Of a stretch of 64,000 nt of DNA, positions 1 to 61,694 are shown piece after piece. The translations under genes were made by a program, and so were the position numbers. The notes beneath the pieces were generated by a model. It worked only from the letters and a program-made list of their open reading frames with translations. It ran no database searches and was not told the DNA's origin. Source of the stretch: a virus (Duplodnaviria > Heunggongvirae > Uroviricota > Caudoviricetes); IMG/VR virus record IMGVR_UViG_3300035501_000173. One strand, 5' to 3'. Numbering within the stretch: the first letter of the stretch is position 1; every line of letters starts with the position of its first letter.

Positions 1-3000
1 GATGCTTTTATAGAGATTTTAGAAAAATCAGAAGAGCCTGTAAAAAATGTACAGGCTCTTCTGACTACGTTTATTTAGAAAACATTTAGGACGGAAGAAC
101 TTAATCCTATTAAAGATGAAGTTATTAGGGAGTTTAATTTAAGTAAAAGATCGGATCAAATATCAGATTATAGAGATTTATTTGGTAATGATGCAGTAGC
201 AAATGCTATGGACTCTGTAAATGAGGAAATGGTTAATATTATTGTAGGAAAATATTTAAATCCAGAAGCCTATACTTAGGAAGATGATATTAAATCAAAA
301 ACAGATGAACTAGAGCATAGTTCAGAAAAGAAAGCTATCTTAAAAAATTCTAGTACATTTATCGATGATACTTATGGCGGACAATCATTAGCTAAAATGG
401 ATATGATGCAAAAGTTCCAATCTTTAATTGGAAATAGTACAATGTTCATGAAAGATTCTAATGGTGATGTCATAGAAATTGCTACTGGTAAATAGTTAAG
501 CTAGAATTTATATCGTTTACAACAAGAATTATATTCTGATATTATAAGAGATTTAAAAGAACTTCGAAAGGTAGATTTACCTGAAAATGTTTTTGATGGG
601 TTTGAGTAGGTAAAAGCCATTATGGATCAATACTATAATTGGAATCCTACCATCATTAATAATTCTAGAAGCCGTAACACCGCTCTCTTCCAAAAAAGCT
701 ATAGAACTTTTAATAACTACTTTATATTAAGTCATTTTGATCAACTTCTACAATCTCAATGTCCTGGACTTGTAGATATAGACCAAAGATATTTTGGATA
801 GCTTCGACAAATAGCTGATGGTAAATATTTTGCCCATAATAAGAATGAAAATTTGGGAACTAGTTGGGGAGATGATACAGAATTATCTGATGGTGTTGGG
901 GAGTTAAATCAAAGTATGAAAACCTTCTTAGGTAATCTTTGGTTATTTAGTAAGGATGGTACTAAAACTCGTTTACTCAAAGTACAAGAAATTGCAGATG
1001 CTTGGTGTGATTTAAAGAATCTTGTATTTCACCCAGAACTAAGATAGCTGGATGTTAATGGTAAAATAGTATGGGGATTTGCCAATACAACAGATGGTAG
1101 AAAGTTTATTAAAGAATATCTTACCGATTCTGCTGGAAACGTACTTACAGTACATGACTTAGTAACTGATATGGTAGATGATCCTACTAAATTAGACATG
1201 TTGCTTAAACTAGCTACATCTGATGTATTTGCAAAAAGAATGCAATTACCCATTACTAAACAGTTAATATATAAGTCTATGTACGCTTAGATGTGTGATA
1301 TTAACTTAGGCGCTGGAATATATCCTTAGAAACTTGACCTAGATGGTAATGTCTATCAAGCATTTCATAATAGCAAGGGACGAAATATAATTACAATCAA
1401 TGATAAAACTCCCGGATACTATAACCATCTACGTCAATTTTTAGATAATATTGAACGTATGAATATGAACCAATTACGTATGAAAGATACAGGTGAGTAT
1501 GAAAATGTTCGATTAAGTTAGGGAGCTAAAGACGCAAACACATTATAGTATATAGGTAATATAGCTGCTACATATTCTGCATTATTAGGAAGTAAGCATG
1601 GTTTATACAGTAATGCAGAATCTGATTATTCTAATGAAATTAAATTAGGAACTATAACGATTGATCGTTCGGGATTATCACTGGAGAAACGTAGTGATAA
1701 GTATATTACCTTCACAGATGGTAAAGTTACTTTTAAAGTTGGAAGTAACTTAAAGGTTTCTATTAAATAGAAAAATGGTAACTTTACTAACTTTTCAGAT
1801 TAGTCAACTTTAGCTGATGCCCAATGGGACGTAATTAAAGAAATACTACAAATACAGGACTATCCTAAAGAAGCTTTTATAAACCAAAGCGCTTCTAATC
1901 TTATCACTGCAGAAACTTTGATAAGTCTTGCTGGAAATGTTATGTATAATTATGGAGTATCCAGTATATTACAAAATCGTAATGATCTTGATGATTTTAA
2001 TATTGATGAGGAAGTAAAAGGATATTTTACTACTGAGGGTACTTATAAGTTAACTAAGGATAAGCAAGAATTACAACCATTTAATCCTAAAAATAATACC
2101 AAAATTAATAATCTAATGGATACCATTGACTAGCTCAATGGTAAGATTAGAGATGCTGTTACAAAAGGAGCTGATGGTAAGATGATTAATACTATTACTA
2201 CATCATAGTTGGCTTCTAAAGCTACACAACAATGGCATCGTGATGCTAAACAATTGGGAGATGATTATGCTTGTAAAGATTTCTCTTTACATGATATATA
2301 TAAAGGATTTGAAATAGCTCGTGATGTAAAACAAAACCTTGATAGTAAGAAAGTAATTGAATTTAGTCCTGCTGAAAACTTTGCTTTTGGTTTTATTTCT
2401 GATTATGCAACTCCTATGAATGATACGGATAAAACTATTAGAGTCCTACCATTAATTATTTCAGATAAGGAGCGCATTCTTAAAATAAAACTAGATCTAA
2501 ATAAAAAAGTTTAGTTTAAGAACTCTAAAGGATAGTCTGTAGAAGAACAACTTTGCAACCTAACTTAGGAAGATTTGTACGACTACATTAAATAGCAACT
2601 AGGAGGTTTTTATGAGCATTAGTATAATCAAATAAAAGGGCGTTACGATAGATTAAAAAATTATGTCACCAATCCAGATGGTACTATTAATTTAGCACAA
2701 TCTCAAACCTTTGCAAGTCAAACTGAAAATTAGGATTTAAGAGAAATGCTCATAATGTTAGATGGTAATGATACATCTGGTGTAAATTATAATACTCTAT
2801 TTACTGAAAATGGTATTCTTAATTTTAAAGGAATTAATCAATTAATAGACTAGTTTATTTCAGACCACTCTGATGAAGCTCAAAATTTTGATATAGACGA
2901 AGAGGCTGTAAAGTTAGCAAGAAAATATGATTTAAATTATCCCACTACTTAGCTATTACTTAAAGGGGTTATTAATGAAATTAAATTAGAGGATGATACG

Positions 3001-6000
3001 ACTTTAGAAAGACAAAAGATTATAGACAAAATAATCAAAAGTCGTAATGATGATTTATAGGATCGAGCCATTGAAGCTGCTAAAAATCTAATTAAAGAAT
3101 TACAATTAAGAGCGCAACTTAAAGGTGATTCAATTGATATTGTGGAAAATTCATTCTATAATATTGATAAAGGTCACTTTGTTCCTAATTATGGTTTAGT
3201 TGATCAACTATACCGTTGGGGTAAAATTGATTAGGTTGCGGCAGAAAGTATGTTACCTACTGGATTACTGGCAACTTCACATAGTTATGGTGCAGAAGCT
3301 GGTAAAGAGCATTTGAAATTCTTTAAAGCTAAATCATTCCAAGTTGTATCTGATATACTTCAAGAAAATGGATATATCAACTTATTTGCACCTGATGGCA
3401 AAAGAATTCCTGGAGCATTACGTAAGTTAGGAAACAAGGAAATTGCGGGGACATTAGATGCGAAAAACGGTTTAGGAAAATGGTCACAAGGTGGAAAACT
3501 AGCTTTAGCAGCTATTCGTTATAGAGAACTTTATGAAGGTGGTATTAAAGAGAAAGCACAACAAATTACAGACCTTAATCAATTAAGTGATATAGGACTT
3601 GTTTAGCAAGCTTTTAAATTTATTAAGTATCTTAATTCTTATAAGTACGGTGTTGTAACGGGACTTACGATAGACGAAGCGGCAAAAAGTATTAGTGATA
3701 ACTATTCTACTATGCGGGAATGCTATAGTTTAGATGATTATTTACGTAATCCTAAATTTAGTTTACTGACTTTAGAGAATGCTATTAATGACTACTTTAA
3801 ATGGTAGGATATTGAACGTGGTATAGCTAATTACAATTCTGATAATGGGAATGTAGATATGTATGCTGAGGTTCGCAAAAATGTTTTCGAGAACGATAAA
3901 ATAGAAATCGAGAAACAGTACAATAAGCGAATTGAGGATAGCAATACTAAATATGATAGTAATATTGCCAGCATAGATGAACAAATGGGGCTTATTACTA
4001 GTGTTGAAGAGTCTGAACGATCCGATGCTGAAAAAGAACGTCTTGTCGATTTAATTGCGGAAAAAGAGCAGTTAAAAGAAGCTAAAGCCGAAGCCGAAAA
4101 GAAATTAAAAGAATCACTTAAAGAAACAATTACTAAAGTAACTGACCGTTATAACAAAGTATTAGAGCAAGTTCCTGCTTACATAAAAGCTGTTTAGGCA
4201 AATCCTAATTTTGCCCATACCGCTGAAATAGTAATTAATCCTGATTTGGAAAAGTATAATGCTTTTAGTTTTCTGTATGGTCAAGAATATACTATAGCTA
4301 CAGTAGGAACGCACTTAAACCATCCTGGTATGAAAAATAAGGATGATTTAAAAGCTTTTGAAAGTCTTTCTTGGGCACAGCAAGTAAAACGTAATGTATC
4401 TTTAACCGCTGCTAAACATTTATATTCTTTAAACTCTTTAAATGGTTTTGGAACTTATTGTAAAATTGCACAGATAGTTTCTGAATCTGATGCAGTTTAT
4501 AATCTTACAGGAGCATAGGATGAAATGCTTAATGATGATGGTGCTAACTACACTAATGGTGTTACTCACCGTCTTGAAAATTATTCATTAGGTAGTGACG
4601 CTGTAGGAGTTGATAAAAAGAACTTTTTCCACATGGAAGATGGTGCTTCTGGTACTGGATTTATTGGCAAGAATGCAACTTTCGTAGGTACGAATTTACG
4701 TATCAGAAACTCTAAGGCCTATAGATTATAGAATTTCCAAATGCTTCGAGGAGCTGTAGGTTACTTAAATCCTTACTTAACTAATGGTGGTTTAAATATT
4801 ACAGAAAGCTTTGAAACTTATTACGATAGTAATACTAGAAAGTGGGAGTTCTCTAAAATGAACTACGAGGACTTTGATTATAAAATTCCCACGTCTTATA
4901 AGCCACATATTTAGTATGAAGTTTAGCTTGAGGATGGTTCTTGGACTGCAGCTAATGGGCTATTACAAGGTTATAATGTTCGTGTAATAGGAGATTCTAT
5001 TAAATTTAAGGATGGTTATACAACTTTTAAATTCTCTAATGTATCTTAGATTGATTCTACTGGAGAGGTTAAATCATTGCCTAATGCGGCAAGCTTTAAT
5101 TTTAGAGTTAAATTGGATAATGTACACGATATTTGGGAATTTTTTGGTGGTGCTTATTCTGGAAAAGCTAAAGAACAGGTTATAAATGGAGATTTGATAT
5201 TAACAATGGATGAAAATAGTTATGATGAATCTTCATTTGATTTAACTACATGGGTTGTAAATAATGTAGGAAAACGAAGAGAAGGTGTTGGTATGGATGT
5301 TAAAGTAGAATCACAAACGCAAGTAGACCAATACTTAAAAGATTCTATGATACATTATTTATCTTCCATTGAAACTATTAAATAGGGTTAGAATAAAATC
5401 AATAAGCGTTCTGATATACGAAATGAAAACTATATTCCATTATTTATGGAAATGGATATGCACGATGCAGGAGTGCAATTAAATGCAGAACACCATTCCG
5501 ATGATTCAGTTCTTTCCATGATGACTTAGGTTTTAAATGCCTTAGGAGCTAGAGGTTATACTTCTTAGGAAGCAGATAAAACTTATCAAGCTTTGCAAGG
5601 TCTTACTAATGCTGCATTGTAGGAATACATTGATTATTCAAGAGCTGGTGATTCGCCACAAAAACGTCAACACTTAGAGAATTTCATAGCACATATAATT
5701 GGTGATACTATTCAAGCTAATAGTACTTTAGATGAAGGTACTTTAGCTGGTGCTTTAATGCACCAAGCATAGAAGTTATTAAGTCGTAATAAGAACTTTA
5801 AATTTGAAGAAGTTCGTTAGTACTTACCTATTGATGATCCAGCCTTACTTAGAAATATGATTTCTAAATTAGCTTCTGGGTTAACAAAAAGATGTATTCG
5901 TGTTAAATTCCCAGGGTCTATGGATGTCATGTCCCCGTCAAACTCTATCTATAGATTATATGACGGTAAAATGTTATCCGAGTATAATGGAGATTTAACA

Positions 6001-9000
6001 GCTTTAACAGAAGCTGATAAAAAGGCTCCTATATTAAAACCCCATGAAATAAAAATAGACAGAGTATATCATATAGAAGGTTGTCCCGGAGCTGATAGTA
6101 GAGGTTATATAAAAATTAATTACCCTACCGATTACTGGCAAGTTCGTCGTTTCCTAGCAACTGCGGAAGGGCAAAAAGTAGAAGTCAGAGAAGTTCTTTC
6201 AGAAGGAAGAGAGCTTGCTTCGTTTGGTATAACTTTTGAAGCTATTGACGAAAATGGTCATAGGAATACTTATAATATGTGGGATTTAGCTACAGCTCGA
6301 GATATGTTTATTAAAGACAAGCTCGAATTGGAGAATGGAAATTCCGATTATAAGTAGAATCATGCACAAAGAATGCAAGATTTGCAAAATGCTTTATTTG
6401 CTTTAAGTGATAATCCAAATGTTAAAACCACTTAGGTTATTGATTATGATGCTAATGGTAATGTAATCTATAAAACAGTACGTATTGCAAAGGAAACTGT
6501 TAAGAAACAACCTTATGAAATTATTATGTCTCAGCTTTATAAAACTACTTTTGGTTTAAGGGCTGGGGATTCTATAGGAAATATTATTAATGATAAGTTA
6601 TTCTTCTTTAAGAGAGCTGTTGAGAATTGGGAGAATGATAAGAACAGACTTCCAGAAGAAGCTTATGATGTGCAACTAAAACAAATTAGTGGTAAGCACA
6701 TTAATTTACTATATGATACAGAGTCTAATAATCCTGATGGTTTTGAGGAGTTACAATTTGATCCTTATATTGATTAGCAAGGTACTATATGGCTTACTAA
6801 CAATAAAGGTGATAAAATAATGAAATTGTCTTCTAAAGATGATGTAGTTCTAAGTAATGGTTCTGGTGATATTATTATTAAAACCAAAGATTTAAAATGG
6901 TATTGTGATAATAGTAAATATGTAGACTTAACTATATCTTCTGGGCGTGATGAAAATACTCTACAAGAAATACTTGGTATATTAAGAGAATCTGATAGTA
7001 AGCAATTAAAGAGCCTGTTTAACCGTCTTGATACTTTATGGGAGTCAAGAGATAGGAAAGAAGCTTTTGAAGACAAAACTCCAGAAGAGCAAGCAGAAGA
7101 AAGGGCTAAATTTGACCATAAGTTTATATCTGTAGGACGTTATAATTTTGAAAGCACTAAAAAAGCTTTACATAACTTTTTAAATAATCGTTATATAGAT
7201 GATGAAATAAAGTATGAATTATTGGATTATGCTCTTAATAGTGATAAGGATACTTTTAATGAGGATAAGTTACGTGAAGATGTTGAATCTTACGGATTAC
7301 GTGACAGTATTGCAGACCAACTTATTAAAATGCGTAAAGGTCATATAGGTTCTATCTTTAGAAATTCTAAATATATAGGAACATCTTTCCAAAAATCTTT
7401 GGAAGTACTTGCAGCTCGTATTCCCGCACAATGTATGCAATCCTTTATGTCTATGAAGGTTGCTGGATTTGATACTAGTGGTTTGAATACAGCTTATGTA
7501 AGCCGTTTCTAGACTTGGTTACAAGGTTCTGACTACGATATAGACAAGGTTTCATTGCTTGGATTTAAATTTAGAAATGGGCACTTCATTACGTGGTCAA
7601 ATTTCATGGATTTAACTTCTACAGCAACTCTTAAAGCTTCTGAAGAACTTTCTTATCCTACTAACCTAGCTGCAGAGGTTCTTGAAAATGATGCTATTAA
7701 TAAAACAAGCCTAAATGAGGATGCTCTTGAAAATGTTAGACTTGATACTAGTATTGATAAAGAAAACCGAGAAGGGGTTAGAACTTTATATGTTCAAGTA
7801 GGAGCAGAAGAAGTACCTTTATTAGAAGTACGTGATGCCTTTAAATAGAATAAAATTAAAGAGTTTACTGATACTTATAATGATATTAAATCTGAATATG
7901 ACGATATAAGTATAGAGAAGGGTGATGCAGAAGCAAAAACTTACTTAAAAAGTAAATATAAAGAAGTACTTGGTTAGGAAGCAGGTCGAAAATAGGTTAA
8001 AACTCTACTTAAAGAGTTAGAAGACCATTATAAGTTCGTAGGGCAAAAGGAATAGGTAAAAGAAAATAAAAAAGCTGGAATTTTCACAATAAATCCTATA
8101 GCAGATGCTGAAACTCTTGCTAATTACGAAACTCAAATTCAAAGAGTTGTTTATGGAGTTATCCCAACTGGTGGTGTAGTATCTATAAATGGTGCTGATA
8201 GTACAGTTATTAATGATATGTTAGTAAAGTATGGCTTTTCTCTTAACCAAAACGTACTAACATAGACTGGTGAGAATGTTTCTGTAGCTAAAGACTTCTA
8301 TGATTATATTACACGTGAGGATTAGATTGCAGGAATTCCTGTCAGTGAGAATTTGGATTCTAGAATTATTATTAAAAATGAATCTGGTTACACCCTTAAC
8401 TACTATCCTGGAGAATTTGCGGATGAGAAAGTACAAGTTGCTAAAATTAAAGCCCTTGCTAAATTTATTGATGCTGTAAATAAATTTGGTGGTATTCCTA
8501 AACTATCTATTACGGAAGATTTAGACGAAGAAACTAAAGAAGCTTATGAGGAACATAATAATGCTTTATAGCAATTGATGGATGAAATCAATGAGCATAA
8601 CTTGTATTTAAAAGATGGCAAAGACTATAGTCAAGATGCTCTTTTAAACTTCGTATCTTCTAATATGTATAATGTGGGCACAAACCCTAGTAACCTTATC
8701 TAGGGTACACAATCCGTAGATGCTAAAGATGGTTCTGTAAATAGAATTAAAAAATTAGCTAACGAGGGCGACTACAAAACTAAGCTTAAACGCTATGATC
8801 CAGGTTCTATTACTAGCTTATGGAATATGGAAGCTTTAACTATTGGTGGTAAAAAGAATACTGGTATTGTTGCTGCCAATCTAAAAGTATTTGAAGGATT
8901 AACTCAATATACTAACATGCTTCTTAATGAGGGTACTCATGAAGAGTTACAAGACTTGCTTGCACATCGTAATATTGCTGGAAAGGATATTCATTTACTT

Positions 9001-11733
9001 GCAAATGTTTACCAGCAGAATAAACATAATTTCACTACTCGTGAAATTTAGGAAGCTCTTGATGCTGTTGACCAAACTCTCGATGCTTACTTGGAATATT
9101 CTGGATTCTTGTCATTGTCTACCGACAATGCTAAAGACCCTACACTTGCCAAAATTAACGCTGGTGAGAAATTATTAGGTTTATACTTATGTGGTGTAGC
9201 AGTAGGTATTGATGTTCCCAGCTTAGTTAAAATATTAACATCTAAAGCAGCCGCAGAATCTGTAAAATTATTAACTAGTAATATGTTTAATAATGCACAA
9301 GGATTCTTTGATGTTAATGCTTTAGATCGGTATCTAGCATCTGGCCCAATTTAGGTGGTAGATGAGTTTAATGTTAGTATGCTTAACTAGCCAGTTCTTA
9401 AAGCATGGATAATAAGTGTTTGGAATAGAGAACACAAAAAGGCAGATTCCCAATTAAGTGCTAGTAGTAAAATAGGTAGAAAACACCTTTCTCATGCCAT
9501 ACAAAAGGATGGATGGCAAAAGTTTAATGACGCTTTAGTAGATTCTCTTAAAAATATTACAAAGGAAGTACATAAAGGTGATGATGCTTTAGAGGTAGCT
9601 GAATAGTTAGAAAATGGTAATCAAAATAATGATTCATCAGAAGTAAAGGAAGAGAGTGCAACTACTGAAAAAGCAAAAGAGAATCTTTGGGCTGTTTACA
9701 ATCTTCTGAAAAAGGTTCAAACTTAGGTAAGAGATTTTGCTAAATCCTAGGAAACTATTAAAGATTGTTGGGTATAGTTACCTAATGGTAGATGGGTTCA
9801 AGCTTGGAGTCAAATTAGACGTTTAAATTAGGTAGCAAATGAATTTAAAAGATTCTCTCAAGTAGCTAAATTAAATTAGCAACTTCCTAATGCTATGGAT
9901 GAGCAACTTGCTTGGATTCGTAAATTTGAAAAAGGTATTGCATCACGAATTTCTGAAATAAGTAAGTAGGAGTTGGACAATCACCCCGAAATGTAGCAAG
10001 CTATAGACGAATTAGAATAGCTAAATAAAGAGTTATATGCTTAGATGATGCAATAGGGAATACTTTCAGGAGAATAGTTTGACCGTTTGAAATATTCCGT
10101 AAGTTTGAGTAAATTTGTAAATGATGCAGAATACCAAAAAAAGATATGTAGTATCTATGGTAAGTTAAAGTATGTTGTAAATGTTTATGATGCAATGGCT
10201 AAACTTCCACATTACTTAGGATATGCTAGAACTCTTGCAGCACTTAGTGAAACTATGGGAGAAACATCTAAAATATACCAAACTGTAAATTACATTTCTC
10301 AAAATGTTATAAAGAGTCTTGGTGATGAATAGCATCGTAAGAAAGAACTTACTCGTTTAATAGACTGGGTTAATGATTGTCTTACTAATGATTTCTTGTT
10401 AAATCGAGGAACTAATCTTACAATTAAGTCTGGATCTAAGTATTATGAAAAAAGTTATGGTCTTACTACTGGTATAGACCCTACTTTAAAAACAGTTGGT
10501 GAGGGTGCTACTTCCACCATACAATTAGGAACTTTGGAAGGCAATATGTCATTTAAATATATAATGGAAAATGAAGTATTGCCGGATTTAAAAGAGAAGT
10601 ATCCTGCATTTGATTTAATAAGAGACTTAAATCAAATTAAGTTTGATAAAACTAATGATAGAAATACATTAGTAAAAATGGCAACTAAGTCTACTATGCT
10701 TCCTAGATCTGAACAAGAAATACAAACTTTAGCTAAGTACAAGGAAGATCTCATAACTTTATCTAATATTAGGTTATCTCAATTTAACGGAGAAATTAAT
10801 TTAGTAGATGCTTTATTTGCTTACAATTTAATTGTAAATAAAGGTAAGGTATCTGGAAATTCTCTTACTAATTTGTTTGAGGATTATGCAATGAGTTAGG
10901 GTAAGTAGTAGACTGATGGGTAGCCTTCTGCTTTTATAGAAGATTATTATAATTCAAGACGAGTTCCAAACGAAAGCTTACTTGAAGAATTAGCATTTTC
11001 TGATAACTAGGTACAGAACTTCTTAATGGCTACAGCATAGTATGATCCTACTTATAAATCTAAAGCAGAGTATATCTACATACGAAATCCTTTTACTAGA
11101 TAGTATGTACTAGCTCAGAAAATAAACAAAGAGGAGATTAGAGCGCAATACACTGATGAGGATTTAGGTGTAGAAGATTACGGAATTGATGATGTTGCCG
11201 AAGATTATATTAATGAGGATTATTCTGATTATGATGACGATGATTACGAAGGTTCAGACTCATCAAATTATAAGAATCAGCGTGCTTGGGAGGCAGGAGT
11301 TGAAGTATAGGGTTATAAAATACTTGGAGTTTCTTCTACTGTGGACGCTTTTAATAATTTTGCAACAGCAATTTATGGAAAGTAGGAAGTCGAAAAAGTC
11401 TTTGATAATATAGAAATTAGTGAGGATGGTAAATAGATAAAATCTATTACTTATAAGTCTGGTGATGATCCAGACGCTCGCACTCTTACGTATGATGATT
11501 TATTTGAAGGTACTTCGGATATAAGATCTGAAAGACGTAAAGCCTTAGAAAAGGAATTAGGAATCAAAGCAAAAGATACTCCAGAATCTAAGCTAGAAAA
11601 AGTACTTATTAATTTTGGTTTAGTAACTAAAGATGCTGATGGTAACATACAACTAGTTTAGAATACTAATGCAAACCCTACAGTAACTTTAGGAGATGTT
11701 ATAAAAATGATTAAAACAGGTAAACCATGCTAA
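1..11733 (+). CDS. Giant protein, 5'-partial in window (>3,900 aa). It is translated with TAG as a sense codon (likely Gln) and ends at TAA 11731-11733. Function unknown; plausibly a virion, cargo or tail-associated protein.
   Basis: Frame 1 is open from nt 1 to 11733 with no TAA or TGA but about 80-100 in-frame TAG codons. All track ORFs 853..10899 lie in this same frame (start mod 3 = 1). The translation is coherent and protein-like across the TAG positions. No canonical RNA polymerase DxDGD motif was seen by eye. Confidence 0.7.
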
Positions 11734-11734
11734 T

Positions 11735-12820
11735 ATGGCAGGATGTATGAATAAAAATGATAGAGGATACCAGTCGTTAAGTAGAATGGCTGGTATCCCT
11801 TCTATGGTATTAGACGTTTATTGTCAAAAGTATTTAGATTCATTTAATAGATTACCTAACTTAGATGAATTACCCCTTGTGGATTCATCTAAGCATTTAA
11901 ATGAATCTTTAAAAACAAAATAGATTGGAGATTCAAGTTTTGCTAGTAATGAAGCTATACAAAAAACTACAGGAGCACAGTCCTTAGGAGAAGCGCAAGT
12001 AAAGCTTAATAATACGTATAGAGATTTACAAGTAAACTTAGTGGAAGTTACAGATAAATCATCTTTACTTGAAGTATAGCATAGACCTAGTGTATTTAAA
12101 GAACTTAATCAAGAATATACAGGGGAAAATTTTGATGTTCAATCTGATACTGACAAACGTGTAGTTCTGCGAAATATGCTTGGTAAACTAAAAGATTTTT
12201 ATGGCATTAAAATTAATGAAGTTACGTCTAAACAATTATGTGAAGGTGACTTTGCTAATATAATACCAGATGCTAAAACCGCTAAAGCCTTTATTTATAA
12301 TAACGAAATATATATAAATACGGATATTGCAGATATAGATGCACCTATACATGAATTAATGCACATATTTTTAGGTGGTATGCGCTATACTAATCCGACT
12401 ATATATTTTAATTTAGTGTCTAAAGCATAGCAGTTTAAGAATTTACAAAGTCTAAGTAAGGTATATCAAGATAGAACTCAATCTGATTTTTTAGAAGAAG
12501 CTTTTGTTTCAGAGTTTTCTAAGCTTTGCGCTGGTATGCACAGTGAATTTGATTCTTGGTCTGCTGAGGATCTTAACCCGTTATTATATGAAGTCCGTAG
12601 AAATATGGACTCAGCTTTAATGGGTAATAAAAGTGTTAATAGTATTGATCCTAATGAACTTTTTAAAGCAAGTTTCTTAGATATTGCTATGCGCACAAAA
12701 TCTCCTGAATTAAATAGAAGCGATTTTAGTATTCTAAATCTCGCTGAATTACATAGACAGAATGCGAATATTAAATCTAAGATGCTAAAAGATGGTGACT
12801 TAGTTGAAAAATGTGATTAA
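11735..12820 (+). CDS. 361-aa protein with an HExxH zincin-like motif (…DAPIHELMHIFLGG…). It carries 3 in-frame TAG codons and a TAA stop. Possible metallopeptidase.
   Basis: The ATG lies 1 nt after the gene-1 stop. Track ORFs 11735, 12176 and 12536 share a frame and are separated only by TAG. The HELMH motif was seen in the translation. Confidence 0.55.
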
Positions 12821-12822
12821 GT

Positions 12823-15800
12823 ATGGCTTGTAAATTTATATATAAAGGCAATAGAGTTTTTAATTCTGAAATTGCACTTGATGAGTTTCTTATTAATAGT
12901 AAGAAGTATTAGGAAGGTTCTGATATTGTATTTGAGTTAAGTACAATTTAGAAACAGCGGGGTGCTAGAATTAAACAACGTGGTAAGGCAGCTGATAAGT
13001 TAATTACTCATAATCCTGTAATATTTGATACAGATTTATTCGAGGATTATGAAATGAATGAGTTCGGTTCTGATAACTATGGCGTTACATTCGCTCTTAA
13101 ATAGTATGTAGATGCGGAAGGTCACCCACTTTTTCCTATATTTAATCTGGAAAACTACTGGCAACATAAAATGCCAGACTGGTAGAAACAAGAATATTGG
13201 ACTAAAGGTTATTAGGATGATACAGGTGAAGTACATAAATGTGATAAGTACGAGTATCAAGCTGTTTGGGGAGATAAAGATCCTAATGATATTACAGCAG
13301 CTCCTACTAATGACTAGTTGGAAGTTGGTAAAAAAGTAATGGAGAGAGTTTGGCCTATGCAAGGTTTTATGGGTACTGGTGTACATAGAATGATTGCAGC
13401 TTATTGGAAATGCTAGACAGCTCATAAAGGTAGGGCTAGTGCTACACAAGTTAAAGCAGAAATGACCAAAGCTCTAGATTTTCAATTAATAGGAAGTGGT
13501 AATAACAATCCTTTATTATCAGAATTTAAAGGCATTAAATACTCAGATTTTCTTTCTGATAAAGTAGATGATACTTACTCAAAATGTAGAGCTATTCACG
13601 ATGAACTTAATTCAAAGTTTTTAACAGATGAGTAGCGTAAATCTGGTATGGAATTGTATTTCTTACCTGAAACCGCCATTACTACAGAAGTTGATGACTT
13701 TGAACATCCCGATAAGAAGAGAAACTTATTGGGTAATGTAGACTTATTTGTAATTGATCCGTCTGGTAACATTCACATTATTGACTACAAAACTTCACCT
13801 AAAGAATATAATGAGTACAACTCAGCTAAAATTAGAACATTCTACTATTAGTTAGCTACCTATAGACGTTTGACAGAGCGTATGGGTTTTGCATTAGACC
13901 ATAATTCTAATGTGTATGTAATACCTATTAAGTTTGAAAACTTCTAGATTGATCCAGAACAAACTGATGTTACAAAGCTTTGTAAATTTGATAATCTTAA
14001 ATTACGTGAGGGAAGTTCTGGTATTTTAGAGCGTTTGGAAGTTAAGGCAAGTCTTAGTTCTACAGGTGTAAACTCCGATACTATTAATAGTAACTTGGAT
14101 AAAATCATTCCTATTAAGAATACTAAAATCATGGCTGATGGTGATATTCTGGATGATGTTAAAACTTAGATGAAAGCCTGGTTTCCAAGTTTCGGTAAGT
14201 ACAATGAAATTACTAAAGAGTATGTTGTCAAGATGCTTAAACGTAAAGGTCGTGATAAGATAAATCCGAACAGTTTGAAATATACTTATAAGGTTGGTAA
14301 GAAAACTGTAATTACTGATAGCTTTGAAGCTCTTGTAGATGGGGTATACTAGGAATATTAGAAGATGGAAGAACACGTTATGGATAGAACTTAGGGTGTT
14401 AAAACCATCTTACAAGAAGCTATAAATAATAAGGAAAATGTAGTCATTGATACAGGATATGCTCATAGCTCTCGTAAATTTGCAAGAGAAAGTTATCTAG
14501 AAAATTTGTTAAACCCTTATACTACTGGAGAATATGAAATCCTTGATGATTATAATGAAGCCACAGAACGTCTTGGAATAATATTACTTAAAAATATACA
14601 TACCAATAAAATTGATGTATTAGTAGTAGATACTAGTAAACATGCTTTTGATGATGAAATAGCACTAGGTGGTACTGAGAATAGTCCAGGACGTAATAAG
14701 ACTTTAACAGGAACTTTTATTTCTGATGTTACTGCAAGAAATAAACCTAATGAGCTAGTACTTGATAGTACTTATGGTAATATTAGAATGATGGAAGTTA
14801 TGTAGGCTTTAAATAATATGTCTGCTTTATTTAATAGTGATTCCGCAGGAATGGAATCTACATTAGGAGAGATTAAAATGTTTAATCAATTTCATAATGA
14901 TGGTTGGACAGCTTCTAATGAACAACTTCTTTACAACTTTAAAGAATTACATAAGGCTAATAAAACAGAAGACTAGATTCATTTAGGTAAGGATATAAAA
15001 ATGTGTAGTTAGCTCGATCTTATTAAGCATAGGTGTAATGAGATTATGGCAAATCCAGAACATGATAGAAAATGGAATGGTATTCAAACTGCTATAGATA
15101 ATACACAAAACTTTACAGTTAATCCTATTATACTTAAATCTCAGCTAATCGGATTAGCACATGACATTGAAGAGAAATTTAAGTTAAAGAATGATACTAA
15201 TGCTAGAAACTTGGAAGGTGATAAAGCAGAAGCATATAGTTTCTTAGCAAACTTATATTCTGCTATTGCAGAAATTGATGGTATTCATTTTAAATAGCAA
15301 ATTAAAGACCATTCTGCTTTCTTAAATTAGTCTGGTGTAAAAAGAATTTTCAAAGAGGGTTGGTCTGGAAATAGTCTTGATAATCCAGGAATGCTTGATT
15401 CTGACACCCTTAATAAGATGGGTCAACGTCTTAATGAAGCCTACTAGCTGACTCGTGACGAGATCCAAAATATTTCAAAGAAGATTTATACATTGAGTAA
15501 AAAATTGAAGGAGGAAAACAACTTCGGATATTTGAAATCTCGAACTATCGGAAATGAAGCATCTATTTACAAAAATTTATATGATGATACTTATGAAGAT
15601 GATTTAGTATTTAAAAACCCATTTGATTCTCACGGAGTAACATTGTCTGAAACTGAAAAGGAGTTTTTAAAGCAATCATTGCTTTTAATCAATCATAATC
15701 GTTATGGAGATGTAAATACTATGGATGACCTAGAATTAGCTATTATGCAGGATCCATATAAATATCTCCGAGTACCATTAACTGAGGGTACTAATGCTTC

Positions 15801-17790
15801 TAAAGTTGCATATAAAGGTATGTGGGAAACCATTAAGGAGAAGTTTAAAAACCTTATCCCTACAAAACTTAATATGCAAAGAATGTTTAAAGGTTTGCTG
15901 GTGGATGAAACTTTATTGGATAACGAGGATGTTCGTAATAAGTATCAAAATAAGGATGCGGAACTTTGGGAAATGAATACTGCATTTGATGCTGGTGAAA
16001 CTGAATAGGCTAGAAAATCCATGTTAGCTAATTATGGTAAGAATTATTTTGAGCATAATCTAGAATTACTTACCATGAAACATGCTTATGCTTATACATT
16101 AAAGAATAATATTAATAAAATATTTCCACTATTTAAAGCATGTGCTTTACAACTAGAAATGGGTGGTGCTATAATGAATACTCGTTTCGCAGAAGACATT
16201 TAGTACTTACATGACTTTATTACTAATAAAGTACTTAATATGTCTATCTAGGATCCTAAATGGAGAACTGCTTAGTACGTATGTGGTAACTTAATGTCTG
16301 GAGCTTCTAAACTAGCATTAGCTTTTAACCCAAAACAATTTTATCAAGCTATTGATGGTTTATGGAAAGATATTTCTTTAGTGATAAGACAAAATGAATA
16401 CGATCAAGCTTTCAGTCAGTAGAATATGAAAGATTCTTTCTGGTGGGTTTACAGAGATTTAACCCATAATTGGGGTGACGGTAAATCATTGGCTTAGGTT
16501 CTTAATGAATAGTATGGTATTAATGATATGGATATGAATTCCTACATTGATAAAACTAAACCTAATCAATTTGGTATCTTTAATTTGGATAATGTAATGT
16601 TCCATTTCGCGTCACGTCCAGACTTCTATAATAGAATGACTATTTTTGGAGCTCAGATGAGACATGATGGTTGCTTTGAAGCACACGACGAAGACGGTAC
16701 ATATCATTGGGAAAAAGACTTGCGCTATAATATCTATGCTAAATATTGTAAGGATGAAAGTGCTGTCCCAGCTTCTTTAAAAGCTGAATATAATAAGCAG
16801 AAAGCTCGTTATAAAGCTGCGGCTACACAATTTCAAGCAGAGGGTGCTAAATTTAAGAATTCTGATGGTGAAATGGAGGATTTTGTTGTAGACCTCTCTA
16901 ATCCAAAGCCATTACCTAGAGCGTACACAGTTAAAGAAGCTGAAAGTATTAAATCTTTAGCAGATTTAATTTATGGATATTATTCTCATGAAAAGAAATC
17001 TATGATTCAATCAACGACTGCTGGAGCTTTATTTATGCAAATGAATACATTCTGGTCTTCTAAGAAAAACTAGTGGTTTTTACCAGGAGGAGTACGTATG
17101 TAGGGTACATATGAACATTATTCTGAAACTTAGGAAGATGGAACTAAAAAGTATTATTACCAAGATGAGAATGGTAATATTACAGATTAGGAAACGGATA
17201 CACCATTCATGGTTTGGAAGGGTCGTTATTAGGAAGGAATCATGGTAACATTAGCTAATATTTTTAATGATACTTTCTATGGTGATGAAACTGGTAAGAA
17301 AGGCTTAGGTAATGCTATTGATAAGTATTGGAACGCAACTGATGAAAACCTTCGTAATGCTTATAGAAATAATTTAAAGTAGTTACTATATGATTTATTA
17401 ATGTTTCTATTCTTAGGAATGCTTATTGCACCTGCTTTAGAGAATGCTGCGAAAGCTCATGCTAAAGAAGTGGGTAATGGTGACTTAGGTGATGCTATGA
17501 TAAATAATGCTACGGTGAATTTAACTTCTATGTTATCTACATCTACAGATGATTTTAACGCACTTAAATCTATTTTTGGTAGAGGTGTACAATGGACACC
17601 ATTCTCTATATCTACACTTACAAACTCTTATTAGAGAGTAAGTTCAGCTGTATCAGGTAATAGTGATTGGTATGATGCTATTGTTAAAATGTCCGCAGCA
17701 GGAAGAACATAGGAGAATATGTTTGATTACATAAAAATAAATACACTCGGTCGAAAGATTGGAGACAATGGAGTAGTAAAAGAGGATTGA
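12823..17790 (+). CDS. Large protein of 1,655 aa translated through many in-frame TAG codons. It ends at TGA 17788-17790 and has a hydrophobic segment near its C-terminus (LLYDLLMFLFLGMLIAPAL). Function unknown; virion or cargo protein candidate.
   Basis: The ATG at 12823 follows TAA 12818-20. The frame is continuous through track ORFs 13648, 14170, 14506, 15046, 15493, 16021, 16528 and 17401, with only TAG interruptions. The first TGA is at 17788. Confidence 0.65.
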
Positions 17791-17840
17791 AAAAAAAATG
17801 GGCGACAACTTAGGAAAAATCCTAAGCTGCCGCCCATTTT
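17790..17840. terminator. Bidirectional rho-independent terminator between the convergent blocks.
   Basis: The sequence is an A-run, then atgggcgacaacttagg (17799-17815), loop aaaaat, cctaagctgccgcccat (17821-17837), then tttt. The stem is 17 bp with 2 mismatches and has A/T runs on both sides. Confidence 0.8.
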
Positions 17841-17851
17841 AATATTTAAAA

Positions 17852-18469
17852 TTACGTTAACAAGTCAAAGTTGTTAATCAAGTCATTTCTTAATAGAAAT
17901 TTATCTAATTTAGAAATGCTTGCATTTAATTCTGTTGCTTTTACAGAAAGATCCTCTAAAGAACCATCATTTTTTACAATAAATGAAAAACCTTTATAAT
18001 CATCTAATTCAGTTTCACTTGTATGTTTTTGCTCACTCTCGGAACCGTCTGAAAAATCGCGATTAACCCGGATTACAAGCCCACCAGCCGATTCAATTCC
18101 TTCGACCTCACTCTTGTACCTTACGTCAGAAATAAAGGCTATATCAGGCTGCTGTGAAGCAATTTCTCCAAACAGCCTTTTAACCCAAAAATTAGTTCCA
18201 AAAGTTTCTCTAAATGCTGTTCCAACCTTTTGTAACAACACTCGATTAGTAGCGTCCCAAAAAAGATTAAAAGACTTTTTAAATTCTCTACTATCGAATA
18301 AACTAGGCTCCACTCCAAAAGCTTCGCCCGCAATGTTCTTTAAGACTCTAGCAAAACTATACTTCTTACATATTATTTCAGGGTGAGTCACTGAAAAGGT
18401 TCCTATTAACATATCAGCAAGAGTATCCTTACCTGCATTCATTTTTCCAGAAATACCTATAATCAACAT
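17852..18469 (-). CDS. Deoxynucleoside monophosphate kinase (T4 gp1-like P-loop kinase).
   Basis: Walker A motif GISGKMNAGKDTLAD. The NFWVKRLF, SDVRYKSE and VKNDGSLEDL segments mirror recalled T4 gp1 regions. Confidence 0.65.
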   Translation of the reverse strand: MLIIGISGKMNAGKDTLADMLIGTFSVTHPEIICKKYSFARVLKNIAGEAFGVEPSLFDSREFKKSFNLFWDATNRVLLQKVGTAFRETFGTNFWVKRLFGEIASQQPDIAFISDVRYKSEVEGIESAGGLVIRVNRDFSDGSESEQKHTSETELDDYKGFSFIVKNDGSLEDLSVKATELNASISKLDKFLLRNDLINNFDLLT

Positions 18470-27020: not shown

Positions 27021-27253
27021 TTTACTATTTTATAAGTTACATTTTCTTCATTCCAACCTTCTAAATCAGTTCCTGATATACCAATACCTCTAGACTGTAG
27101 AAACTTTATTAAAGTATTTATTATGTCTTTAGGCTTTTGTATATTTTCAGAATATCTCTTTAAAAAGTCTTCATCCGATTCTCCTTCATTTTGTTCAAAA
27201 TAAAGGGTTCTATTCATATTCAAGCTTACTTGAATTCCTTTATACATACTCAT
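27017..27253 (-). CDS. Hypothetical protein.
   Basis: ORF of 78 aa. Confidence 0.4.
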   Translation of the reverse strand: MSMYKGIQVSLNMNRTLYFEQNEGESDEDFLKRYSENIQKPKDIINTLIKFLQSRGIGISGTDLEGWNEENVTYKIVK

Positions 27254-28110
27254 AACAACGCTTCAAATTTAGTTCTGTCTTTAGTTTGAAAATCCTTAAT
27301 AAGTTTATGATGAATTTGTCTAATCCTCTCAGAACTTAATGCAAACTTACGGGATATTTCATTATAATCCATTTCATTACACCCTTTAAGACCATACAGC
27401 ATACAAATAATATCATGGTCACGACTACTTAATTTCTCAAGTATTTGCGATATTCTATCTGCGATATAATTATTATTAGTAATAGCTTCTGGATTATCTG
27501 AAATTGGATTAGGAATGCAATCTCCAATAGTGCAATCTTCTGAATCATCAATACTAGGAGCATCAATACTTACACAGTTATTTGTAGAAGTTTGTACATC
27601 TCTAATCATATCCTCGGTAAATCCTGATAATTCTGAAAGTTCTTCAACAGAAGGCTCACGTTCATTTAACTGCTTAAACTTAGCTGTTAATTTATTTAGC
27701 TTAGTTTTAGGTTCTATTTGAGAAGTCGGAAGTCTTACATTATTTCCTGTATAATAAATAGATTTTAATATAGCTTGTCTAATCCACCATACAGCATAAG
27801 AAATAAATCGAAAGCCTCTTCTTTCATCAAACTTTGTAGCTGCTACAACCATTCCAGCATTTCCCTCAGCAACTAAGTCTTCCAAAGGAACACCTCTACC
27901 TTGATACTGTTTAGCAACAGTAATAACAAATCGAAGATTGGCAGATACTAATTTATTAAGAGCATTCTTATCACCCTCTCTAATTCTTTTAGCTAATTCA
28001 CACTCCTCTTCTTTACTAATCATTTCAATATGACTTACATCTTTTAAATACATATTAAAAGATTCCGTATTTCTAGGGGTGATACTTTTAGTTATATTAA
28101 TAGCTTTCAT
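27250..28110 (-). CDS. Sigma-70 family RNA polymerase sigma factor, phage-encoded.
   Basis: Region 2 reads LEDLVAEGNAGMVVAATKFDERRGFRFISYAVWWIRQAI and region 1.2/2.1 reads EEECELAKRIREGDKNALNKLVSANLRFVITVAKQY. The C-terminal region 4 helix-turn-helix reads MDYNEISRKFALSSERIRQIHHKLIKDF. Confidence 0.85.
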   Translation of the reverse strand: MKAINITKSITPRNTESFNMYLKDVSHIEMISKEEECELAKRIREGDKNALNKLVSANLRFVITVAKQYQGRGVPLEDLVAEGNAGMVVAATKFDERRGFRFISYAVWWIRQAILKSIYYTGNNVRLPTSQIEPKTKLNKLTAKFKQLNEREPSVEELSELSGFTEDMIRDVQTSTNNCVSIDAPSIDDSEDCTIGDCIPNPISDNPEAITNNNYIADRISQILEKLSSRDHDIICMLYGLKGCNEMDYNEISRKFALSSERIRQIHHKLIKDFQTKDRTKFEALL

Positions 28111-32213: not shown

Positions 32214-33305
32214 CATTTATGTTATCCTAAAGACTCTTTATTCTTTAGTTCTGCAGTTTCATTAGTTATATCTGCAGGTCGGACTATATCTTCTCCAACA
32301 ATATTTATAATTTGTTGGAGCAGGGCACTCGTGGTAGCATTACTATCCTCGCTAAGGACTCGGCTACTAGTCTCTGAACCTTCAAGAGTATTACTACTCA
32401 AGCTTGGCTGCTGATTGTCCACCTCTGGAGTTTCCAGCAATTCACCCTGTTTTAAGACGCCAATTATCGCTTTATATTTTTCAGATCGTTCATGTGCTTT
32501 AGTATTATGGTATGTAGTATGTTCAGAACGTGTTAGTATTTGAAGATTTTCTAAACGATTGTCTGTTTTTATTTCATTTATATGATGCACATCATATTCA
32601 TCTTTTAGAACAATCCATCCATTAACATTCTCAAAATACTTAGGATCAAACTTATCATGATTTCTTTCAATTACTAATCTATGCTGTCTAACTCTAGATC
32701 CTTGAACACTTTTATCACAGGGTTTTGGATGTCCTGGACAATACTCTAACACGTAACCTAAATTAGAAATTGTTTCTTTACCCTTAAAACTTGCATTTTT
32801 ATCACCAGTAAGTCCATATTGATGATTATTTTCTCCTAAATATGTAGTTTCTCTTAATTTGTTACTACATTCTTTACTACAACAAATTTGCGTTTTAACT
32901 TTTTTTATTCTACTAGGTTTCGCATAGAATTGGTTACCGCAAATAGGGCAAGTACAATTTAACTCAGTCTTTTTTCTAAATAAAGCTGAGCAAGTAGTGC
33001 TACAACATTGATAGGTCTTTGCACGACTCGGAGTAACGTATTCTATTTTACCACAATAAGCACATATTACTTCTATTTTATCTACAGCATTCTTTTCATT
33101 CGGTTTTCCTTTACTGTGTTCATCCGAACATTGTTTACAACAATATTTTCGATGAGCACTTTTCTTTCCTAAGAAAGTTTTTCCACAATTTAAACAAATA
33201 TATTCTACCATACTAATTTTTTTAATATGGTTAAATATAGACAATTTTATTGGAATAACCTAATAAAAATAATAAATTGTGTAGTAACTGTTAATATATA
33301 ATTTT
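32214..33305 (-). mobile_element. Group I intron (~1,092 nt) interrupting dut and carrying an HNH homing endonuclease ORF.
   Basis: dUTPase is split exactly inside motif 3 (…TPGCIDA | DYRGE…). Exon 1 ends in U (GCU), the insert ends in G, and the internal ORF is in a different frame. A stop follows AKIIY immediately after the junction. Confidence 0.6.
32222..33244 (-). CDS. HNH homing endonuclease with N-terminal Cys-rich zinc-ribbon repeats, encoded within the intron.
   Basis: HNH motif HHINEIKTDNRLENLQILTRSEHTTYHN. There are multiple CxxC pairs at the N-terminus. Confidence 0.75.
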   Translation of the reverse strand: MSIFNHIKKISMVEYICLNCGKTFLGKKSAHRKYCCKQCSDEHSKGKPNEKNAVDKIEVICAYCGKIEYVTPSRAKTYQCCSTTCSALFRKKTELNCTCPICGNQFYAKPSRIKKVKTQICCSKECSNKLRETTYLGENNHQYGLTGDKNASFKGKETISNLGYVLEYCPGHPKPCDKSVQGSRVRQHRLVIERNHDKFDPKYFENVNGWIVLKDEYDVHHINEIKTDNRLENLQILTRSEHTTYHNTKAHERSEKYKAIIGVLKQGELLETPEVDNQQPSLSSNTLEGSETSSRVLSEDSNATTSALLQQIINIVGEDIVRPADITNETAELKNKESLG

Positions 33306-33635
33306 AGCGTCTATACAACCTGGCGTGTTAAGAACAGTTATACCGTGTTTAAGAGCTAATCCGCTACGAGGTCTTACTTTTATTTCATAACCTTCTGGAA
33401 TTGCAACGAATAAACCAGTAGGAATAAGTGCTCTACCTCCGGGACGGATAACCACAGCACCACCTTCTGTATAAAATTGATTATCTAAGATACAATCAAC
33501 TCCTTTAACATTAAGTATTCCATGAATATCTGCTCGCACATCCATACCAGCAGAACCATCGGTTTCATAACTAGGAAGTGGATTATTCCATTGTTCATCA
33601 TAATATTGCTTTTGCTTTACTTTTACTTCTACCAT
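33306..33635 (-). CDS. dut: dUTPase, exon 1 (motifs 1-3: [38 protein letters not shown]).
   Basis: N-terminal dUTPase motifs. The track ORF 33291..33635 reads 15 nt into the intron before its stop. Confidence 0.7.
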
Positions 33636-36325: not shown

Positions 36326-37705
36326 CTATTGATAAATTAAAACATTCTTTTTAGTTCTAGATAAAGCTACATATTGAAGTTGCCTTCTTACAGCTTCATC
36401 ATTACAACTATTTATATTACGAATATCTACAAATACACTATCAAAGGTACTACCTTGGGATTTATGTGTACTTATAGCATAACTATAGTCAAAAGATTTC
36501 TTTCGGATTAATCTACCATCCACGTATAAATCAATTGGTGTAGTAAAGCTTCCCATCATTTCAAAATATTTTTTCCAATAATAGTTAGCTTTTTGCCTTT
36601 CACCTAGTTGTTTTAGTTGAATTGCTTGTTGTCTGTAACCTTCAATTTTTAAAGATAAAGACTCAAGATAATCTTTAGAAATATCTTTAGATAAAATAGA
36701 TATATTTTCACTACTTTTTGTTAATGAATCATAAAGTTCCATACTAATCCCAGGCAAAGAGCCAAAATTTGGAATATGAATTTCTGTTTTAAAAGGTTCA
36801 TTTACAATAATATAATCCATAGAATTATAAAATTTGAACCCATTAAACTCAAGATTCTCACAACCAATAAGGAATTCACCCTTATGATACTGACAATCTT
36901 TACCAAAGAATGCTTGGTGTATCGCTTGATTGTAAGCCTTAACTCTATCATTCGTATAACATAAAATCTTAGTACTTAATATATCTCCTTTTTTCATAGC
37001 TTTCGCTAATGCAATTTTTGCTTCTTTCAAAAATTCCTTCATATCAGACGTTACAAGAAGACTTCCTTCCTCTCCGATGCAATTATCAAAGTGCTTCATT
37101 GAATGCGTTCTGAGTGTCTGTAACACGTCAATAAAACCATTTTTATCGGACTGTCTGTATATCTTTTGAAGTTCTACACAGGGTTGTGTATGAATAACTT
37201 TTGAAAGAAAATCTTGTTTTACAGGCTGTAATTGTGCAAAATCTCCAGTAAATATAATCTGTGATTCTTGTTCTTGCACTTGTGCAATTAAACAGGAATA
37301 CAAATCATTATTTATCATCGAAGATTCATCACAAATCACAATACCACGCTTAGGAATAGATGTAACATTACCACTACATTTAAACATAAGATTACGAAAA
37401 TCAAGAGCAAAAATGTCGAGATTAGGAGAAAGCGAGAGTAATTTGTGCAATGTAACTGCTTCTCTTTCTGTATATCTTTCAAGCACCAATGCCGCTTTAT
37501 GAGTTGGGGCACATAGTGCGTATTGAATACGATTGCGTTCACACCAATCAATTATATAATTTACTAATACACTTTTACCAGTACCAGCACTACCGTAGTA
37601 GAGACAGGCAGGTTCTTTATGATCATTAATAAATTTTATGACCATATTAAGAGCCTTTTCCTGATCTTCTCCTAAGATAATGCTGGTATCATGTTTATTT
37701 ATCAT
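36326..37705 (-). CDS. SF1 DNA helicase, Dda/RecD-like.
   Basis: Walker A motif GSAGTGKS, a CAPTHKAA motif and the C-terminal motif ISTHKSQGSTFDSVFVD. Confidence 0.8.
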   Translation of the reverse strand: MINKHDTSIILGEDQEKALNMVIKFINDHKEPACLYYGSAGTGKSVLVNYIIDWCERNRIQYALCAPTHKAALVLERYTEREAVTLHKLLSLSPNLDIFALDFRNLMFKCSGNVTSIPKRGIVICDESSMINNDLYSCLIAQVQEQESQIIFTGDFAQLQPVKQDFLSKVIHTQPCVELQKIYRQSDKNGFIDVLQTLRTHSMKHFDNCIGEEGSLLVTSDMKEFLKEAKIALAKAMKKGDILSTKILCYTNDRVKAYNQAIHQAFFGKDCQYHKGEFLIGCENLEFNGFKFYNSMDYIIVNEPFKTEIHIPNFGSLPGISMELYDSLTKSSENISILSKDISKDYLESLSLKIEGYRQQAIQLKQLGERQKANYYWKKYFEMMGSFTTPIDLYVDGRLIRKKSFDYSYAISTHKSQGSTFDSVFVDIRNINSCNDEAVRRQLQYVALSRTKKNVLIYQ

Positions 37706-39659: not shown

Positions 39660-39846
39660 AGTCGTGCTCTTCTACGTATTCTTTCATACCTTGTATAACA
39701 GTTTCTGACATAAAAGTTTGCCCTACTAACAAGCCATGTAAAGCTTCTAGTATATCAGTAACTGAACAATCTTCGTAAGCACTTTCCCATGAAAACTTAT
39801 TACTACCTATTTCTAGTGTTAATTTAGTCTTTCTATCCTCGTTCAT
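39646..39846 (-). CDS. Hypothetical protein.
   Basis: ORF of 66 aa with an ATGA overlap with nrdD. Confidence 0.4.
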   Translation of the reverse strand: MNEDRKTKLTLEIGSNKFSWESAYEDCSVTDILEALHGLLVGQTFMSETVIQGMKEYVEEHDYELS

Positions 39847-61647: not shown

Positions 61648-61694
61648 ATTATTTTAGTTTATATAAAAATAGCTGGATGTTACTCCAGCTTTAG

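Follow-up and report, generated by a model that had tools for sequence, protein, structure and literature searches.

Reassignment of the TAG stop codon to glutamine (Gln) has been described for the late genes of crAss-like phages, including those of the transcription block (Yutin et al., 2021; PMC7886860), and the use of code 15 by such phages has been confirmed by metaproteomics (Peters et al., 2022; PMC9523058). A temporal code-switch model was generalised by Borges et al. (bioRxiv 10.1101/2021.08.26.457843) from phages such as Lak, crAss, Jade, Sapphire, Agate, Garnet, Amethyst and Topaz, in which the structural and late genes use an alternative code and the early genes are readable with the standard one. 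The same arrangement is found in the DNA analysed here, a stretch of 64,000 nucleotides (the window) from the Caudoviricetes record IMGVR_UViG_3300035501_000173, which has three genes with in-frame TAG on its plus strand (genes 1 to 3) facing a block of early genes on the minus strand. It is very likely that the window belongs to a large crAss-like gut phage with its late block in code 15 (TAG read as Gln, TAA and TGA as stops) and its early block readable with the standard code, a temporal code switch being the most likely mechanism. The late-gene recoding of this phage is solidly supported as real, but it is well documented for such phages and is not new; it adds one more lineage to an established pattern and leaves the picture unchanged. 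Minor additions are a recoded homing endonuclease gene in the early block, TAG codons at the glutamines of catalytic motifs, and a genome in which TAG ends some genes while encoding a residue in others.

Like other TAG-recoded crAss-like phages, especially those of the Zeta group (Yutin et al., 2021, PMC7886860; Babkin et al., 2025, PMC12386605), the phage has recoding mostly in its late genes, including the giant transcription block with its DxDxD RNA polymerase. Also shared with the Zeta-type phages are a PD-(D/E)XK nuclease in the late block, a large module of replication and nucleotide metabolism genes (PolA, primase, DnaB, Thy1, dUTPase and ribonucleotide reductase), group I introns and homing endonucleases, and a tRNA cluster at one end of the early block. 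In both cases the code varies among relatives, and a suppressor tRNA goes undetected in some of the recoded genomes. Unlike in the Zeta-type phages, no PHROG or Pfam family is matched by the giant proteins, and the early genes include one for a sigma-70-family factor. The likeness to this group is based on the genes of the window, with TerL, the major capsid protein and the portal lying outside it. As with the phages of Borges et al., differing codes occur within one clade; unlike in their model, however, no suppressor tRNA or release factor 2 was seen in about 75 kb, and a homing endonuclease of the early module is recoded. The phage phAss-1 (Phassvirus; PMC10607447), with a genome of about 136 kb, is likewise a gut phage with TAG in many open reading frames (ORFs), but it has three suppressor tRNA genes, only its NrdD is similar to that of the window (39%), and the giant proteins have no match there.

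The first-pass annotation of the window described frame 1 as running from position 1 to 11733 with many TAG codons and no TAA or TGA, and this is borne out by counting, with 79 TAG and neither of the other two stops found ahead of the terminator TAA at 11731-11733. The next two genes (11735-12820 and 12823-17790), which were also said to read through TAG, do so at 3 and 35 codons respectively and terminate with TAA and TGA. As the other two plus-strand frames across the 17.8 kb hold hundreds of TAA and TGA codons (188 and 52 in one, 497 and 356 in the other), a run of 3,910 codons free of both is not due to chance. Taken together, the three genes have TAG at 117 of their 5,926 codons, with TAA and TGA in frame at none, and TAG accounts for 39% of the total of CAA, CAG and TAG. 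With code 11, the block breaks up into pieces of at most 230 amino acids. The product sizes given at the outset (more than 3,900, 361 and 1,655 amino acids) hold, and gene calls of 3,921, 361 and 1,655 amino acids were obtained from Logan assemblies of the same phage. The full length of gene 1 derives from a 115-kb JGI contig, 100% identical to the window over the 13.6 kb compared and covering it to approximately 41 kb, in which the gene starts 33 nucleotides upstream of the window (MACSLDINEKV, ahead of DAFIE...). Upstream of gene 1, this contig has another giant ORF, which is 2,227 amino acids or more in length and contains 45 TAG codons. The contig and the remainder of the window give a phage genome of at least 140 kb.

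The early block presents the opposite picture, with in-frame TAG at 0 of 12,121 codons in 50 genes versus 117 of 5,926 in the late block (Fisher p = 1.4e-47). These genes encode a deoxynucleoside-monophosphate kinase, ThyX, PolA, a sigma-70-family factor, RNA and DNA ligases, a Dda-like helicase, NrdD and NrdG, primase, a DnaB-like helicase, Sak4, a DEAD helicase and lysozyme. The proposal that recoding is confined to the late block therefore stands for these 50 genes, but it fails for the gene at 48408-49436, the sole early-block stretch without code-11 ORF coverage and the sole recoded gene found there. Comparing translation tables 11 and 15 and counting TAG gene by gene, as had been advised, separates the two blocks clearly, yet TAG is the stop codon of two or more early genes; the terminators of the 50 are TAA in 34, TGA in 14 and TAG in 2. 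TAG is both a sense codon and a terminator in this one genome. The product of the recoded gene at 48408-49436 matches phrog_559 (1e-65) across residues 1-314. The gene may be a mobile one with translation only once the code has switched, or it may have come from a different recoded phage. Many assemblies break right beside this gene, which hints at a presence/absence polymorphism.

What TAG encodes was assessed by comparison with relatives. Genes 1 to 3 recur in unchanged order on a 171-kb IMG/VR contig (L001), where they contain 55, 4 and 24 TAG codons, the positions of which mostly differ from those of the window. Relatives of gene 3 on three other contigs (L017, L018 and L019) are likewise TAG-recoded, and three-gene synteny with recoding at mostly differing TAG positions is seen in four contigs. 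In MT835470 (L016), a relative with the standard code, the homologous giant ORFs are uninterrupted, and collinearity with them supports the earlier view that the fragments between TAG codons are not separately initiated genes. The architecture of the late block is held at 25-55% identity across several relatives. The test of TAG partners was limited to sequences for which the DNA was available, because database proteins from a code-15 caller already show Q at TAG. In the pairwise comparison of the window with L001, Gln stood opposite TAG in 34 of approximately 166 partners against a background of 2.8%, and the Gln model was 60 log-likelihood units above the runner-up glutamate (Glu). In an alignment of six gene-3 sequences, the TAG partners were Gln in 111 cases, lysine (Lys) in 55 and Glu in 55, with Gln best by approximately 190 log-likelihood units over the whole alignment and by 23 when the standard-code relative was the sole comparison.

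A number of TAG codons also occupy positions of conserved motifs. In the gene-3 nuclease, the invariant glutamine of QxxxY is encoded by the TAG at 13849-13851 (YYqLATYRR, the lower-case letter being TAG). The gene-1 TAG at 7510-7512, seven codons ahead of GSDYDIDK, has Q as its counterpart in four homologous fragments from code-11 calling. Four homologs of the recoded early-block endonuclease, from enterobacterial jumbo phages (of Salmonella, Klebsiella, E. coli and Yersinia), share an invariant Q in EYDGIQHF, and it is with this residue that the TAG at 48651-48653 aligns. The expectation that TAG would align to Gln in relatives holds, as Gln is its commonest partner and gives the best likelihood, and TAG falls at invariant glutamines of motifs. 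These alignments and the codon counts show, at the level of sequence comparison, that TAG is a sense codon meaning Gln, limited to the late block and one homing endonuclease gene, and that this trait is common to related phages. Predicted peptides that span TAG sites and carry Gln include ...VSRFQTWLQGSDYDIDK... and ...TFYYQLATYR....

A profile of four gene-1 homologs (KSLEVLAARIPAQCMQSF...GSDYDIDK) aligns to residues 1314-1374 (KALRAIGYRIPNQGQSS...GSDFDIDK) of gp66, the virion-packaged RNA polymerase of Cellulophaga phage phi14:2. The match spans about 60 residues (hhalign E = 3.8e-4, probability 36%) and gives motif-level support only. The two proteins share the catalytic segment R-I-P-x-Q...G-S-D-[FY]-D-I-D-K, which in gp66 includes DFDID, an instance of the DxDxD motif that is typical of the catalytic site in the RNA polymerases of crAss-like phages. 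Like gene 1, the gp66 gene is the last but one of its late operon, has genes for other giant virion proteins as neighbours and is convergent on the early genes. The phi14:2 order of g067 (virion protein), g066 (RNA polymerase) and g065 (polymerase-associated protein), with the early genes converging on them, equals the order and layout of the window, which are kept in L001, L018, L019 and MT835470. There are differences between the two phages, as phi14:2 uses the standard code and the RNA-polymerase-like protein of the window is nearly twice the size of gp66. Searches with the giant proteins were otherwise of little yield. For genes 1 and 2, PHROGs, Pfam and the sequences of PDB yielded no match, sequence and profile searches of the gene-1 core against PDB gave no real match, and tblastn of the giant proteins in a phage collection gave only three matches, all to unannotated records. 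A homolog search with a 1,200-residue segment of gene 1 returned nothing (its candidate list was probably swamped), while a 112-residue core returned six short code-11 fragments only. The AlphaFold2 model built from gene-1 fragments was unusable (pLDDT 40).

Gene 3 matches PF12705 (E = 4.9e-7), a domain precomputed in 12 of its 13 homologs, and a PD-(D/E)XK nuclease is among the traits by which the late blocks of crAss-like phages have been distinguished (Yutin et al., 2021; PMC7886860). The comparison of gene 3 with gp65 of phi14:2 by hhalign was not significant (E = 0.07). Gene 2, the synteny of which is kept in L001, L018 and L019, is a putative HExxH protein by its motif. The top 20 matches of PolA are mostly to annotated Crassvirales or phages with crAss in their name (35-47% identity), and the best match of NrdD is to a Thomasclavelia phage. 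A Shine-Dalgarno motif was found in one of 42 early-gene leaders, as against 9% of random 17-mers. Such absence is typical for Bacteroidota and their phages, and the leaders of the window fit with that phylum. Because of the gp66 motif match, the phi14:2 layout, the PD-(D/E)XK nuclease, the Crassvirales matches of PolA and the leaders without Shine-Dalgarno motifs, the phage is classed here as crAss-like and is probably near the large-genome Zeta group. The plus-strand block, put forward at first as a late or virion block, would on homology and synteny with phi14:2 be a virion RNA-polymerase block of the crAss type. Coordinates of the features are collected in Table 1.

Table 1. Features of the 64,000-nucleotide window discussed in the text.
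Feature	Position	Strand	Remarks
Gene 1, giant RNA-polymerase-like late protein	1-11733	+	3,910 amino acids in window
RIPAQ...GSDYDIDK segment of gene 1	7417-7548	+	Aligned to phi14:2 gp66 residues 1314-1374
Gene 2, 361-amino-acid protein	11735-12820	+	HELMH (HExxH) at 12350-12364
Gene 3, 1,655-amino-acid protein with N-terminal PD-(D/E)XK nuclease domain	12823-17790	+
PD-(D/E)XK motifs of gene 3	13738-13863	+	VDLFVID, IIDYKT, YYqLATY
Early, replication and nucleotide-metabolism block	17852-63017	-	50 genes counted
HNH endonuclease ORF carried by group I intron	32222-33244	-
Group I intron	32251-32536	-	RF00028, 70.3 bits, full-length match; not listed again in a later E-value run
Apparent N-terminal exon of dUTPase gene	33291-33635	-	Ahead of group I intron
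TAG terminator of Dda-like helicase gene	36326-36328	-	Next start 3 nucleotides on; read-through would add 43 codons
TAG-ATA-TAA at end of exonuclease gene (46555-47598)	46549-46557	-	TAG terminator; back-up TAA two codons on
Homing-endonuclease-like gene (phrog_559 / DUF723 type)	48408-49436	-	341 amino acids; 11 sense TAG
tRNA-Gln(UUG)	61694-61766	-	Ordinary Gln tRNA, no CUA suppressor
tRNA-Glu(UUC)	63213-63285	-	First of tRNA cluster; Asn, Ala and Met beyond window end

With a temporal code switch, the early genes would be translated by unmodified host machinery, and a UAG decoder supplied later by the phage would allow full-length late proteins to be made. Such a decoder would normally be a tRNA(CUA) charged with Gln, possibly aided by interference with release factor 1 (RF1). 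Before the switch, translation of each late mRNA would terminate within a few dozen codons. As the first in-frame TAG comes early in all three genes (codon 26 of gene 1, or 37 in the full protein, codon 63 of gene 2 and codon 30 of gene 3), recoding would act as a translational lock on virion proteins. The late operon would end in a crAss-type virion transcription block made up of the RNA-polymerase-like, 361-residue and PD-(D/E)XK proteins. The early block also has a gene for a sigma-70-family factor with regions 1.2-4 (27250-28110, minus strand), which is kept in the relative L019 and may steer the RNA polymerase of the host towards promoters of the middle or late class.

Several points weigh against this model. 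The first-pass annotation had advised a search for tRNA(CUA), release factor and glutaminyl-tRNA synthetase genes, and that search came back empty. No tRNA(CUA), release factor or aminoacyl-tRNA synthetase was found in the window with 2.5 kb to its right and 6.7 kb to its left (about 75 kb, at least 67 kb of the genome lying outside the scan). The only tRNAs of the window are tRNA-Gln(UUG) and tRNA-Glu(UUC). There is also no tRNA(CUA) by ARAGORN or at the Rfam gathering score in MT835492, a 121.6-kb record of a TAG-recoded distant relative. One recoded gene, that at 48408-49436, is located within the early block. The plus-strand block may be called late by its homology and synteny with phi14:2, and the timing of the switch and its function as a lock would follow by analogy with described phages; we infer each of the decoder's identity, the timing and the regulatory purpose.

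The scan for a suppressor was made with ARAGORN at default and relaxed settings and with Rfam at gathering and E-value thresholds, and it covered the window, the flanks on identical contigs, the early regions of relatives and contigs with a core like that of the hepatitis delta virus (HDV) ribozyme. Over all of these regions, no tRNA(CUA) attributable to the phage of the window was found. Calls of 'tRNA-Pyl(cta)' by relaxed ARAGORN lie inside coding regions and were dismissed as false positives. An odd tRNA (UCU/ACU) in L029 and L033 was considered as a shifted CUA and rejected, its 7-nucleotide loop being canonical. The distant relative MT835492 (L034-L036) is in standard code from 1 to 50 kb and TAG-recoded from 50 to 121 kb, where ORF coverage rises from 0.18-0.21 with code 11 to 0.89-0.93 with TAG as a sense codon.

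These results bear on the alternative that survives best, itself unlikely, in which UAG is read as Gln without a canonical CUA suppressor, either by near-cognate Gln tRNAs after inactivation of the host RF1 or by a non-canonical tRNA-like RNA. The failure to find tRNA(CUA) in about 75 kb of the phage and in the whole of MT835492 speaks for it, as do the tRNA-Gln(UUG) carried by the phage, the odd tRNA-like elements that adjoin its tRNA cluster and the recoded crAss-like genomes without detectable suppressor already on record (PMC7886860; PMC12386605). However, at least 67 kb of the genome lies outside the scan, the MT835492 record may be incomplete, such phages usually do have suppressor tRNAs, and near-cognate reading of 79 UAG codons in one mRNA is hardly credible. 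A slightly less probable form of the idea would extend it to this clade of large crAss-like phages, which might do without a conventional tRNA(CUA) by disabling RF1 and relying on their own abundant tRNA-Gln(UUG) or the host tRNA-Gln(CUG) as near-cognate readers, or by using an aberrant tRNA-like RNA from the cluster of tRNA and HDV-like ribozyme, the recoded endonuclease being then a late-gated mobile element. If complete genomes truly lack tRNA(CUA), these phages would be good material for learning how some recoded phages switch code.

Improbable to a greater degree is a host that itself uses TAG as a sense codon, with a phage adapted to it and no temporal switch. Against such a host are the absence of sense TAG from the early codons set beside its 39% share of late Gln-type codons, and the ending of the Dda-like helicase and exonuclease genes in TAG with an adjacent start or a back-up TAA. 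In addition, the closest characterised relatives infect Bacteroidales with the standard code (PMC7886860). Less credible again is the reading of TAG as another residue (Lys, Glu, pyrrolysine, tyrosine or leucine) or in a heterogeneous manner. Lys and Glu are indeed the next commonest partners of TAG, but both are common substitutes for Gln in any case, Gln is ahead by 60 to 190 log units, and TAG falls at invariant Gln columns in three unrelated protein families. Pyrrolysine was rejected, as neither pyl genes nor tRNA(CUA) were found in the window and TAG is frequent, at 2% of late codons, and aligned with Gln. The least probable explanation, under which the block would be made up of pseudogenes in decay, of misassembled sequence or of numerous small genes each with its own start, could appeal to the small size of the code-11 pieces but is refuted by the comparative data, given the absence of TAA and TGA from 5,926 codons, identical sequence in independent JGI and Logan assemblies, collinear alignment across TAG codons to the uninterrupted ORFs of MT835470 and the same architecture at 25-55% identity in several relatives.

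For annotation, the consequence is that code-11 gene calling goes badly wrong for the present genome and for related contigs (80-240 kb, of human and animal gut origin), and code 15 is needed because code 11 splits four giant virion proteins into 'hypothetical' pieces by the dozen.

The tRNA cluster that begins near the right end of the window has a number of further features. An HDV-like ribozyme lies directly 3′ of tRNA-Met just past the right end of the window (L009 1082-1220, L010 1580-1718), matching RF02682 with 28.5-28.9 bits, which is below the gathering score. The pair of tRNA-Met and HDV-like ribozyme is also present in the distant relative MT835492 (12403-12540). Of 15 IMG/VR contigs with the ribozyme core, most have it next to tRNA-Met, as do eight metagenome contigs, and in one instance (L067) it adjoins a tRNA(CUA). 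This arrangement agrees with the 'theta ribozymes' that have been described from recoded phages of the gut (PMC10879173). A 53-nucleotide tRNA-like element is present ahead of the tRNA cluster (L010 1180-1232; L009 ~672-735); it has acceptor, D and T arms but no anticodon arm, scoring 30.8 bits with the Rfam tRNA model, and a second T-arm-like hairpin with a T-run sits approximately 250 nucleotides past it. On the contig IMGVR_UViG_3300045608_000056 (L027), a tRNA with the anticodon UCA, an opal suppressor, is located at 1250-1321 inside the tRNA cluster. This contig is from a relative (44% identity in the DEAD helicase), and although its recoding of TGA is not clearly shown, the UCA tRNA suggests that the code varies within the lineage.

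In addition to the group I intron with its HNH endonuclease ORF beside the dUTPase exon (Table 1), signs of mobile elements were noted at two other sites. In MT835470, an insert of about 1 kb (locus 16966-18003) splits the RNA-polymerase-like gene within DYDID (...WLQGSDY before it and DIDKAYIMGY... after it), and the insert, placed where conservation is highest, would presumably be an intron or other mobile element. By coordinate mapping, the 115-kb JGI contig ends inside nrdD (39843-42941) at approximately 41200 of the window. The closest NrdD homologs, from Thomasclavelia phages, are interrupted by an HNH endonuclease, and this suggests strain-level presence or absence of a mobile element at the site near 41200.

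The late proteins differ from the early ones in composition, with a Gln content of 5.0% when TAG is counted versus 3.0%. The codon CAG is scarcer in the late genes, where it makes up 8% of Gln-type codons including TAG, versus 22% of CAA and CAG in the early genes. The giant late proteins begin with M-A-C or M-A-G-C, namely MACSLD, MAGCMN and MACKFI (starts at L011 6719 and at 11735 and 12823 of the window). Homologs in MT835470 begin with MACTNF and MACSYS and those in other relatives with MKC, while Cys4 is invariant among 13 gene-3 homologs. This shared start may be a signal for N-terminal processing, modification or packaging. Exactly at the junction of the two convergent blocks, near 17.8 kb, the GC skew changes sign.

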